Origin: Opitutales bacterium
GTDB taxonomy: Bacteria > Verrucomicrobiota > Verrucomicrobiia > Opitutales > Coraliomargaritaceae
Direction of reading: 5' to 3'
Assembly (NCBI GenBank): GCA_049606355.1
Contig: JBMYVL010000009.1
Location: 78,356 to 110,355 of the forward strand
Length of the DNA: 32,000 nucleotides
The translations under genes and the position numbers were made by a program. Positions 18,879-19,566 of the stretch are shown here, piece after piece (position 1 is the first letter of the stretch; each line of letters opens with the position of its first letter). The notes under the pieces are model-generated. The model was not told the DNA's origin. It searched no databases and worked only from the letters and a program-made list of their open reading frames with translations.

Positions 18879-18908
18879 TTGACAAGTCGGAGCACGATTA
18901 ACTTTATA
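18879..18908 (+). promoter_or_regulatory. Candidate sigma70-type promoter for tRNA-Asn
   Basis: Perfect -35 TTGACA at 18879-18884. A weak -10-like tttata lies at 18903-18908 (18-nt spacer), about 12 nt before the tRNA 5' end. Confidence 0.35.
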
Positions 18909-18919
18909 CGCGCTTTTAT

Positions 18920-18994
18920 TGCTCAGTAGCTCAGCGGTAGAGCAGGTGACTGTTAATCACTTGGTCGCTGGTTCGATCCCAGCCTGAGCAGCCA
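18920..18994 (+). tRNA. tRNA-Asn (anticodon GUU), CCA encoded
   Basis: Cloverleaf folded by hand, 75 nt. Acceptor tgctcag/ctgagca, D arm gctc-agcggta-gagc, anticodon arm ggtga-ctGTTaa-tcact, variable loop tggtc, T arm gctgg-ttcgatc-ccagc, discriminator g, then cca. Confidence 0.93.
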
Positions 18995-18999
18995 TTATC

Positions 19000-19030
19000 G
19001 AAGCCCCTTGGATTTACCCTAAGGGGCTTC
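19000..19030 (+). terminator. 10-bp hairpin after tRNA-Asn (terminator-like or processing structure)
   Basis: gaagcccctt (19000-19009) pairs with aaggggcttc (19021-19030) around an 11-nt loop. Only a short tttat follows, so termination is probably leaky. Confidence 0.5.
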
Positions 19031-19038
19031 TTTATGTG

Positions 19039-19299
19039 ATGGCTTACGTTTATGTATTAGAAAACCCCAAGGGTCGGCGCTATATTGGGCATTCCGATGA
19101 CCTAGAGCGTCGCCTGAAGCAGCATAATTCTCCTAAGGGTAAGGAACATTTGGGCAACTACACCCACACGAACGGTCCGTGGGTCATCATTGGTTCCGAG
19201 GCGTTCGCCACTCGCTCTGAAGCCATGATCCGCGAGCAGCAACTCAAGTCCTGGAAATCACCTTCGAAAGTTCGGGCTCTTTTTCAGTCTCAGCGGTAG
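19039..19299 (+). CDS. Stand-alone GIY-YIG nuclease family protein (UPF0213/YhbQ-like, catalytic domain only)
   Basis: MAYVYVLENPKGRRYIGHSDDLERRLKQHN...EAMIREQQLKSWKS carries the GIY (YVY) and YIG motifs, the conserved R..H-N and the catalytic Glu before L-K-x-W. GTG 19036 is one codon upstream of ATG 19039. The TAG stop lies in the D-loop remnant of the downstream tRNA-like copy. Confidence 0.85.
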   Translation: MAYVYVLENPKGRRYIGHSDDLERRLKQHNSPKGKEHLGNYTHTNGPWVIIGSEAFATRSEAMIREQQLKSWKSPSKVRALFQSQR

Positions 19300-19380
19300 A
19301 GTCCCGACTTGTCGGGATTAATCACTTGGTCAGTCGTAGATCCCGACAAGTCGCTGATTCGATCCCAGCCTGAGCAGCCA
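19281..19380 (+). pseudogene. Degenerate second copy of tRNA-Asn with two internal insertions (tRNA-like remnant)
   Basis: Compared with 18920-18994: ctcagcggtagag matches 13/13, ttaatcacttggtc 14/14, and gctgattcgatcccagcctgagcagcca 27/28. The single mismatch changes the T-stem G53 equivalent to A. The acceptor 5' strand is degraded (ttttcag). The 5' half of the anticodon arm is replaced by tcccgacttgtcggga, and 21 nt are inserted before the T arm. No GUU anticodon loop remains. Confidence 0.75.
19305..19353. repeat. 13-bp perfect inverted repeat inside the tRNA-like remnant
   Basis: cgacttgtcggga (19305-19317) is the exact reverse complement of tcccgacaagtcg (19341-19353), with a 23-nt spacer. 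The left arm also belongs to a local palindrome, tcccgac-tt-gtcggga (19302-19317). Confidence 0.85.
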
Positions 19381-19383
19381 TTT

Positions 19384-19413
19384 GAAGGCCCTTGGATTGA
19401 TTGAAGGGCCTTT
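19384..19413 (+). terminator. 10-bp hairpin after the tRNA-like remnant, homologous to the 19000-19030 hairpin
   Basis: gaaggccctt (19384-19393) pairs with aagggccttt (19404-19413), with one G-U pair and loop ggattgattg. Both hairpins share gaag..cccttggatt. This is the likely terminator of the GIY-YIG transcript. Confidence 0.5.
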
Positions 19414-19566
19414 CGCGGGGTTTGAGGTCCAAACCGTTGCCACCGCTTGTTGCGCAAATATGATGGGAATAGTTACTCAGGTTCGTTCCCTTTCGGTTTC
19501 TGAATCTATAAGCTTGTTGGTTTATCGTGTGTTCTCAAGTACCCCGGTTATCACTACTGTGTTATC

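Follow-up and report, generated by a model that had tools for sequence, protein, structure and literature searches.

A putative integrase-free GIY-YIG nuclease cassette associated with tRNA genes in an Opitutales bacterium and in other bacterial phyla

Results

Organization of the tRNA-Asn locus

A 32-kb stretch of DNA from an Opitutales bacterium (contig JBMYVL010000009.1), referred to here as the window, carries an intact tRNA-Asn gene, a small open reading frame (ORF) coding for a GIY-YIG nuclease-domain protein and a second, altered copy of the tRNA-Asn gene (copy 2), all on the same strand. A comparative analysis has revealed that this three-part layout recurs in at least 8 phyla and with at least 10 tRNA identities, and that the second copy is patterned and not the product of chance decay. 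The whole looks like an undescribed integrase-free element living in tRNA genes, which is called the cassette in this work. The following features were located in the window.

18879..18908, + strand: probable promoter of the tRNA-ORF unit (read by eye, tentative; the consensus scan gave no call)
18920..18994, + strand: intact tRNA-Asn(GTT) with encoded CCA (ARAGORN; Rfam RF00005, 69.3 bits)
19000..19030, + strand: terminator-like hairpin of 12 bp followed by TTTAT (terminator/promoter scan)
19036 (GTG) or 19039 (ATG)..19299, + strand: GIY-YIG nuclease ORF (Pfam PF01541 at 5e-17)
19281..19301, + strand: 5' part of copy 2, with the acceptor 5' remnant TTTTCAG and the D-arm CTCAGCGGTAGAG, overlapped by the last ORF codons (alignment, blastn)
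19302..19317, + strand: signature hairpin TCCCGACTTGTCGGGA (TCCCGAC-TT-GTCGGGA), perfect (gapped alignment, motif scan)
19318..19331, + strand: segment TTAATCACTTGGTC, kept unchanged from the tRNA (14/14), with the 3' bases of the anticodon loop, the 3' strand of the anticodon stem and the variable loop (blastn)
19332..19352, + strand: 21-nt insert AGTCGTAGATCCCGACAAGTC ahead of the T-arm, a decayed second hairpin module (gapped alignment, locus comparison)
19353..19380, + strand: T-arm, acceptor 3' strand and CCA of copy 2, the ORF-distal 'outer arm', 27/28 identical to the tRNA (G53 to A; blastn)
19385..19412, + strand: second hairpin AAGGCCCTT...AAGGGCCTT, paralogue of the one at 19000-19030, with a weak T-tract (comparison; not called as a terminator)

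The tRNA search was carried out with ARAGORN in the 32-kb window and with Rfam on the window region at E<=10. The tRNA-Asn(GTT) gene at 18920-18994 (+ strand) was the only tRNA called by ARAGORN in the window, and its sequence is identical in an ORF-less site (L088) and in four other loci (L001-L004) of the comparison described below. Copy 2 was called neither by ARAGORN nor by Rfam, even at E<=10. A preliminary description of this DNA, made from its letters alone, had proposed that a unit of tRNA-Asn plus hairpin is present twice with a GIY-YIG ORF in between, and this was borne out by ARAGORN, Rfam, Pfam and blastn. The comparison of copy 1 with the window by blastn gave identities of 13/13 (19289-19301), 14/14 (19318-19331) and 32/33 (19350-19382, E 1e-11), and the identical blocks reported previously (13/13, 14/14 and 27/28, the last one checked directly) are real. 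The G53 equivalent, described as lost, is an A in copy 2. The second unit, which had been placed at 19281-19413, does contain a tRNA copy, but the tRNA-derived part ends at the CCA (19380) and positions 19385-19412 correspond to a separate hairpin. The acceptor 5' strand, described as lost, has left a remnant (TTTTCAG versus TGCTCAG), and the anticodon loop, also described as lost, has actually been swapped for the hairpin TCCCGACTTGTCGGGA, with a 21-nt insert in addition.

The hairpin at 19302-19317 stands in for tRNA positions 25-34, that is, the anticodon-stem 5' strand and the first loop bases, and the intact parts of copy 2 in the window are the T-arm and this new hairpin only. The ORF stop TAG (19297-19299) falls within the D-loop sequence of copy 2 (GCGGTAGAG). 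The module from which the 21-nt insert has decayed is found intact, as AAGTCGCAGA-TCCCGAY...RTCGGGA, in three of the compared loci (L005, L006 and L009). Within 19302-19352, pairing of the 3' half of the first hairpin with the 5' arm of the decayed module can give a perfect helix of 13-15 bp around TTAATCACTTGGTC (minimum free energy -40.4 kcal/mol, z -5.1), which is probably a by-product of the same palindromic arm being present in both modules.

The tentative promoter, recognized by eye, consists of a perfect -35 box (TTGACA, 18879-18884) and, about 18 nt further on, an A/T-rich -10-like sequence (TTTATA) that precedes the tRNA by 11-12 nt. The ORF starts 5-8 nt past the hairpin at 19000-19030, which has relatives behind copy 2 and, at the equivalent position, in other Opitutales loci, and the consensus scan found no promoter between the tRNA and the ORF in the window. 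The ATG at 19039 (86 aa) is more likely to be the start codon than the GTG at 19036 (87 aa).

The GIY-YIG protein

The ORF product matched PF01541 with 5e-17 and 62 bits (cut-off 22.6), and it is 100% identical over 86 aa to a database protein from an Opitutales metagenome-assembled genome (MAG). The residues in the catalytic columns (Y6, Y16, R26, H30, N31 and E67) are invariant among 31 homologues. The protein of 86/87 aa is the nuclease domain alone, as in bacterial stand-alone UPF0213 members; it is devoid of the C-terminal PHD/RING-type zinc finger of eukaryotic Slx1, and no NUMOD, IENR1 or helix-turn-helix DNA-binding module was matched, as 86 aa leaves no room for it. Besides PF01541, a weak match to T5orf172 and a sub-threshold one to the group I intron endonuclease model TIGR01453 (22 bits versus a cut-off of 56) were obtained.

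The AlphaFold2 model (predicted local distance difference test score 84) displays a beta-beta-alpha-alpha-beta-alpha-alpha topology. A profile search against Protein Data Bank sequences retrieved BH0048 (1ZG2, 1.7e-15), EF2693 (1YWL, 1.4e-12) and SLX1 (6e-6), and the top Foldseek matches of the model were 1ZG2, 6SEH, 1YWL and 7WME, which include the Arabidopsis Holliday-junction resolvase HIGLE; neither I-TevI nor UvrC was found among these top matches. From the profile search and the fold neighbours, the protein is assigned to the Slx1/UPF0213 lineage of structure-specific nucleases and not to the I-TevI lineage. The preliminary description is supported as far as a tRNA-linked, integrase-free unit is concerned; the predicted enzyme is of the structure-specific Slx1/UPF0213 type and not a truncated I-TevI-type homing enzyme.

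The family is large, with 4,038 cluster representatives (50% identity) at E<=1e-10, almost all of them of 80-125 aa. Values of dN/dS for close pairs range from 0.07 to 0.31 (0.14-0.15 for the window ORF against L001/L002), and therefore the protein is under purifying selection. The protein clades mostly track taxonomy, and the tRNA identity is clade-specific. Matches in phage collections were rare and weak, and PADLOC gave marginal partial matches for the ORF product and no defence-system assignment.

Linkage of the ORF to tRNA genes

A scan of one genome per GTDB species yielded 300 confirmed homologous loci, the best 80 of which were analysed. These 80 loci are the top matches to one peptide pattern and not a random sample of the family, and most of them come from MAGs, in which repeats may be collapsed, mis-joined or mis-assembled. 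They span Verrucomicrobiota, Bacteroidota, Acidobacteriota, Desulfobacterota, Armatimonadota, Chloroflexota, Zixibacteria, Methylomirabilota, several lineages of the candidate phyla radiation (CPR) and Bradyrhizobium. Cultured carriers are Sphingobacterium spiritivorum ATCC 33861, Terrimonas ferruginea DSM 30193, Polaribacter sp. BAL334, Pseudopedobacter beijingensis, Thalassobacterium maritimum and Puniceicoccus vermicola.

A same-strand tRNA was found within 600 nt of the ORF in 63-64 of the 80 loci. Bacterial genomes carry roughly one tRNA per 80 kb, so that about 1 of 80 loci would be expected to be tRNA-linked by chance. All 85 tRNAs called by ARAGORN in the 80 loci lie on the ORF strand and 0 on the opposite one. 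The tRNA ends at most 600 nt upstream of the ORF in 55/80 loci and at most 100 nt upstream in 42, in some cases only 1-20 nt before it; in 8-9 further loci the tRNA overlaps the ORF or lies just downstream, and in four CPR loci the ORF stop is 15 nt inside a genuine tRNA. A lack of tRNA enrichment among homologues had been put forward previously as the result that would point to a plain tandem duplication, and these counts reveal the enrichment. The short gaps, together with the lack of a promoter call between tRNA and ORF in the window, also agree with the earlier suggestion of the tRNA as promoter donor. In four loci (L069:2924-3003, L050, L053 and L020) the start codon is only 1-7 nt past the tRNA 3' end, and with such a gap the tRNA 3' processing would leave an almost leaderless mRNA.

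The tRNA used depends on the lineage: Asn in Opitutales and in Desulfobacterota/Syntrophorhabdus, Val-TAC in Bacteroidota, Ala-GGC or Val-GAC in Acidobacteriota, and Ala-TGC, Glu or Asp in CPR, with Pro, Met, Leu, Gly and Arg as further identities.

The hairpin-substituted tRNA copy

When the sequence at the ORF stop was aligned to the local upstream tRNA, about 50 loci gave a much better match than did the control windows taken from the same locus. The copied tRNA is the local one (Asn, Val, Ala, Met, Pro, Leu, Gly and others), and in every phylum its anticodon arm is swapped for a hairpin with the consensus YCCCG(N0-4)-loop-(N0-4)CGGGR. This hairpin was found at the ORF stop in about 55-60 of the 80 loci (in 60/80 between -60 and +150 nt of the stop, for the most part no more than about 30 nt away). 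The motif occurs about once per 14 kb in control DNA and a single time in the 32-kb window, and the chance expectation is about 0.7 of the 80 loci. The decay through which copy 2 had been considered degenerate is not compatible with these data, as the same conserved hairpin replaces the anticodon arm across all phyla and tRNA identities.

Covariation was analysed in an alignment of 30 copies from different lineages with 500 shuffles. Hairpin pairs 2-5 (CCCG/CGGG) are the same in 28-30 of the 30 copies, and the two inner pairs covary (GC 14, AU 13; CG 18, UA 8) to an extent reached by 0/500 shuffles; the T-stem varies with the local tRNA, and an outer U-G pair is tolerated on the sense strand in 3/30 copies. 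The loci L001-L011 and L029 have the hairpin at the same position as the window with variable loops, and L003 displays the compensatory variant TCCCGC/GCGGGA.

The ORF often ends in the hairpin loop or at the D-loop TAG, and it crosses the hairpin in frames that differ by clade (HPD* versus ASR*). Since the frames differ between clades, coding does not account for the hairpin conservation; conservation as the protein tail was rejected for this reason and also because hairpins outside the ORF are equally conserved. A double-stranded palindromic site for a dimer is unlikely, given a half-site spacing of 2-12 nt with complementarity always kept. A tRNA-scaffold RNA was discarded as an explanation for the loci in general, since a median of 3 of 7 acceptor-stem pairs is left in the copies and the D stem is also unmaintained in most of them; complete cloverleaf copies were found in a few loci (L025, L058 and L066). 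In Rfam scans of the window region (E<=10) and of 30 loci (gathering threshold), tRNA alone was matched and no intron family, so that copy 2 belongs to no described RNA family. A covariance model of the hairpin-bearing copy (R1) was dropped as non-discriminating, since it matches genuine tRNAs too; it scores the window copy at 15 bits owing to the inserts. In Terrimonas ferruginea (L070:2717-2795), the hairpin (CCCCGYC...GGCGGGG) lies between the D-arm and an intact-looking anticodon arm (anticodon GGG) with no replacement, and ARAGORN still calls this copy as a 79-nt tRNA-Pro.

The hairpin accompanies the nuclease and not the tRNA alone. Five Bradyrhizobium loci (L057, L061, L073, L076 and L079; about 2930-3440 in each) have no tRNA nearby; on both sides of their ORF a related hairpin, TGTCGTCCCTGCGAACGCAGGGACCCATA, is present as direct repeats, with an inverted copy in addition. 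This hairpin has the form GTCCCTGCG-NN-CGCAGGGAC within TGTCG...CCCATAAC; the 6-kb loci contained no further copies, and the plasmid collection gave no match. In Opitutales and in one Woesebacteria locus, extra hairpin modules, of which the window insert is a decayed case, replace or interrupt the T-stem, the T-loop or the acceptor strand, and they differ between related genomes.

Two mirror forms and a conserved outer arm

Two arrangements were distinguished. Form A (tRNA-ORF-copy) was present in 51 loci and form B (copy-ORF-tRNA) in 8, mainly from CPR, Chloroflexota and Zixibacteria; other loci contained the hairpin only (12), the tRNA only (5) or neither (5, all Bradyrhizobium). The median identity to the tRNA in form A is 0.97 for the ORF-distal part of the copy, which comprises the variable loop, the T-arm and the acceptor 3' strand, and only 0.54 for the 24 nt facing the ORF. 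Form B shows the reverse: the 5' part of the copy, made up of the acceptor 5' strand and the D-arm, matches the tRNA (identity of 1.0 in 6/8), and the 3' part on the ORF side has diverged. As the acceptor stem is not kept (median 3/7), the identity of the unpaired 3' strand of the copy is a property of the DNA and not a result of RNA folding. The composite is built like a single tRNA gene interrupted at the anticodon arm, and because the insert carries along the half that would otherwise be missing, the host retains a working tRNA. Both forms would be expected from one unit (ORF plus hairpin copy) recombining with a plain tRNA gene.

Occupancy, amplification and decay

Sites lacking the cassette, a check suggested in the preliminary description, were found in relatives at a tRNA-Ala(GGC) locus and at L088. 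The first was recovered with the gene flanking it in L034, from close relatives in which the product of this gene is 84-100% identical and the tRNA does not differ. The orthologous locus is empty in L094-L096 and L099, carries one unit in L034 and contains two identical 310-nt units in L092/L093. It belongs to relatives of Candidatus Acidiferrum, and in the cassette-free genomes the tRNA 3' end is followed by other mobile DNA: genes for TrwC and the type IV secretion system coupling protein in L094-L096, and a phage-type integrase with an Xre-RES pair in L099. An integrase gene is also located nearby in L097. The right flank of the locus differs in every genome, and the junctions are only half defined because other islands occupy these flanks. 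L088, with the closest relative of the window menF (87% identity), has an identical tRNA-Asn 78 nt downstream and neither ORF nor copy; among 11 menF relatives, L088 alone has the tRNA-Asn.

The unit measures 310-480 nt and has one ORF. Tandem ORF units (2-6) were found in 16/80 loci, with six complete ORF plus copy units in L037 (1224-3237) and three in L026 (2662-3582). In addition, tandem arrays of 5-10 ORF-less hairpin-bearing copies adjoin the ORF in L014 (2458-3000), L026 (1840-2640), L067 (3340-4160) and L017 (2011-2762), with periods of 77, 76, 86 and 174 nt, respectively. Those of L014, L026 and L067, with 6-10 copies, look like internally deleted units, and the L014 unit resembles an ORF-containing one that has lost its ORF. 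Pseudogenes with in-frame stops were detected in L008 (3001-3246) and L009 (3004-3255), both with a downstream hairpin-bearing copy that is still recognisable.

L005 (2634-3325) and L009 (2630-3325) share a 700-bp unit with unrelated flanks. About 370 nt upstream of the ORF belong to this unit; they contain inverted repeats of the GATCGAAATGATCG type and what is left of a strongly modified tRNA-Asn, and in L005 this upstream segment is partly repeated 1.1 kb downstream (4100-4400). In L080 (600-3260), a 443-aa ATPase gene and an overlapping 180-aa ORF (no family match) are located between a hairpin-bearing tRNA-Val copy and the GIY-YIG ORF, in the order tRNA-Val-GAC, hairpin-bearing tRNA-Val copy, ATPase/180-aa ORFs, GIY-YIG ORF and second hairpin copy. 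The ATPase matches PADLOC NsnB (9e-56) and Pfam AAA_21/AAA_15/DUF3696, and both genes may be defence-like cargo captured by the cassette.

Neighbouring genes in the window

None of the 19 window ORFs of at least 200 aa codes for a recombinase, integrase or transposase. Together with the Rfam scans, this confirms the previous statement that neither an integrase nor an intron core is present. The long ORFs are housekeeping genes such as those for isochorismate synthase, UvrD, LptF/G, a TonB receptor and sulfatases, and neither menF nor a TonB receptor gene was found near the ORF in any of L001-L011. A promoter-like site at 19437-19464 (TTGCCA, 16 nt, TATGAT; 10/12 matches) precedes the TonB-dependent receptor gene (19567-22518); as this site lies between the cassette and the receptor gene, the latter probably has its own promoter, outside the unit.

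Discussion

The explanation favoured in this work, which is given about an even chance of being correct, is that the cassette is an integrase-free, homing-like selfish element that splits and restores a tRNA gene and that spreads or amplifies by nuclease-stimulated homologous recombination. It is supported by the tRNA linkage, the hairpin-substituted copy with its two mirror forms and exact outer arm, the polymorphic occupancy, the tandem units and pseudogenes, the purifying selection, the Slx1/UPF0213 lineage of the protein, the precedent of SegB and the lack of a recombinase in the window. According to this model, the ORF, which has no promoter of its own, is read from the tRNA promoter, and its mRNA would be freed by tRNA 3' processing. 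RecA-type recombination would use the exact outer arms as homology, the partner being incoming DNA, a sister copy or a plain tRNA gene; depending on whether the crossover falls 3' or 5' of the heterology, the product would be tRNA-ORF-copy or copy-ORF-tRNA, respectively, and unequal exchange would lead to tandem arrays or to clean loss. The nuclease would most likely supply the initiating nick or break, either at the hairpin formed in single-stranded DNA of the heavily transcribed tRNA operon or in tRNA-gene DNA, as SegB does.

Judged by analogy, the cassette would work most like the homing endonuclease genes that stand free within tRNA clusters. SegB of phages T4/T6 is a GIY-YIG enzyme encoded beside a tRNA array; it cuts inside tRNA genes at the motif RAWTSGAAC, the equivalent of T-arm sequence. 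The tRNA and segB are amplified in tandem through its action, with the help of microhomology of the tRNA 5' end to the segB 3' end, and inefficient self-cutting of the donor is tolerated (PMC13096335). The cassette shares with SegB a GIY-YIG gene among same-strand tRNA genes and, with I-TevI/Seg homing endonucleases, presence/absence polymorphism at a conserved site (tRNA-Ala and L088), with junctions that are half defined. In contrast, SegB is a larger phage protein of the I-TevI/Seg type and the cassette protein is a chromosomal 86-aa domain-only Slx1/UPF0213 member, and SegB has neither a hairpin-substituted tRNA copy nor a regular tRNA duplication around its ORF.

REP/REPIN-RAYT systems (REP, repetitive extragenic palindrome) also combine a small nuclease gene with its own short G+C-rich hairpins and an apparently long, largely vertical persistence, and the hairpin repeats flanking the Bradyrhizobium ORF and the extra hairpins inserted in Opitutales and Woesebacteria copies are reminiscent of them. 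However, RAYT is an HUH/Y1 enzyme instead of a GIY-YIG one, and REPs are dispersed in hundreds of copies that do not lie in tRNA copies; of the cassette hairpins, local copies only were found within the 6-kb loci scanned.

Several points weigh against the selfish-element model. Both the cleavage activity and its substrate, like any drive, are inferred, and the 86-aa domain-only protein has no DNA-binding module. A nuclease recognizing plain tRNA-gene DNA would cut its own locus, because the resident tRNA is identical to that of the empty site. The model does not account for the cross-phylum invariance of the hairpin core, and recognition of the hairpin by the nuclease is assumed in it. Clades that largely track taxonomy and mostly intact ORFs under purifying selection fit vertical residence or a host benefit equally well, and the tandem gain and loss could be due to passive recombination between direct repeats. 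Finally, no empty/filled pair with both flanks conserved was found at the tRNA-Ala locus, where other islands use the tRNA end, and many loci come from MAGs with the risk of mis-assembled repeats.

An unlikely alternative is a domesticated, Slx1-like host nuclease expressed from tRNA operons, for which the hairpin copy would be a cis site or a regulatory/titrating site. Such an enzyme might process hairpins, R-loops or recombination intermediates at tRNA loci, or it might tune tRNA copy number. The Slx1/UPF0213 proteins (YhbQ, YazA, BH0048 and EF2693) and At-HIGLE are the best sequence and fold matches, with conserved catalytic residues. Eukaryotic Slx1 differs from the cassette protein by its C-terminal zinc finger and by its need for Slx4, and embedding in tRNA genes or a cognate hairpin was not described for this group in the literature searched. 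The strong purifying selection, the correspondence of protein clades with taxonomy and tRNA type, the very large family (4,038 clusters) and its rarity in phages are what a host function would predict, and prokaryotic Slx1-like members fused or linked to tRNA methyltransferases have been described (PMC1564403). A resident host gene is difficult to reconcile with presence/absence and copy-number polymorphism at one locus among close relatives, with pseudogenes and tandem arrays of up to six units, or with occupied tRNA species that differ by lineage, and its function would not need a disabled duplicate tRNA at every locus.

It is rather improbable that the cassette is an RNA-protein module in which the hairpin, carried on a tRNA-derived RNA, acts as an inhibitor of the nuclease, as a cofactor or as a guide. 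The inhibitor version would be similar to toxin-antitoxin systems, and the ORF-less arrays of 6-10 copies beside the ORF in L014, L026 and L067 recall the repeats of type III (ToxIN-like) systems, although the cassette protein has a DNA-nuclease fold. An RNA role would be consistent with the invariant core, varying loop and covarying inner pairs of the hairpin, with its exact anticodon-arm position, with the U-G outer pair tolerated on the sense strand in 3/30 copies, with the complete cloverleaves of three loci and with the hairpins that accompany the ORF without a tRNA in Bradyrhizobium. However, most copies maintain no tRNA-like fold, with neither the acceptor stem (median 3/7) nor the D stem kept, and no Rfam family was matched. 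Form A has the copy 3' of the ORF and form B has it on the 5' side, and the conserved arm is likewise 3' of the hairpin in A and 5' in B, which would be odd for a fixed handle-guide RNA. In addition, Slx1-lineage enzymes are DNA nucleases. A specific RNA-guided version, in which the hairpin-bearing copy is transcribed, the hairpin is a handle that loads the nuclease and the exact arm pairs with the tRNA gene (for instance in an R-loop), so that a branched structure is placed at the anticodon arm and cut by the structure-specific enzyme, is very improbable; if true, it would be a minimal tRNA-derived homing system and would explain how a domain-only nuclease targets many tRNA genes.

There is hardly any likelihood that the cassette is a remnant of a classical mobile element, be it a tRNA island with an integrase or a group I intron bearing a homing endonuclease, of which the nuclease ORF and the tRNA repeats would be all that is left. 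As in integrase islands, there is insertion at a tRNA gene with an intact tRNA restored, a leftover direct repeat of the tRNA 3' part flanking the ORF like attL/attR, and polymorphic occupancy; integrase islands also use tRNA 3' ends in the loci studied here (L097 and L099). The cassette differs from them in having no tyrosine or serine recombinase in the window, a size of only 0.3-0.5 kb with a single ORF in dozens of lineages, a repeat that reaches the D-arm and carries the hairpin in place of the anticodon arm, and a mirror form with the copy upstream. The heterology at the anticodon arm and the GIY-YIG ORF are reminiscent of the group I introns found in tRNA anticodon loops, and the sub-threshold TIGR01453 match (22 bits versus 56) points in the same direction, but no ribozyme core or other intron RNA family was matched in the window region and 30 loci, and the functional upstream tRNA is uninterrupted and duplicated. 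A plain tandem tRNA-Asn duplication with chance decay of copy 2 and an unrelated small ORF in between has a negligible probability: tandem tRNA genes are common and copy 2 is not called as a tRNA, but this explanation is refuted by the recurrence of layout and hairpin in at least 8 phyla and 10 tRNA identities, against a hairpin expected by chance in about 0.7 of 80 loci.

No tRNA-linked Slx1-like GIY-YIG genes or anticodon-arm-swapped tRNA copies were found described in a search of the full-text literature in which most subscription journals were not covered, and there is a small chance that the cassette is something categorically new. If the selfish-element explanation is true, thousands of small genes annotated as 'GIY-YIG nuclease family protein' would form an unrecognised class of elements that colonise tRNA genes without an integrase, a chromosomal counterpart of the SegB-driven amplification of tRNA loci. 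These elements would account for many of the so far unexplained pseudo-tRNAs and tRNA-like repeat arrays that adjoin tRNA genes, and they would provide a mechanism for changes in tRNA copy number and for transfer across phyla, with the universal conservation of tRNAs serving as portable homology. The 86-aa nuclease and its 16-20-nt cognate hairpin would constitute a very small, testable protein-nucleic acid recognition system.

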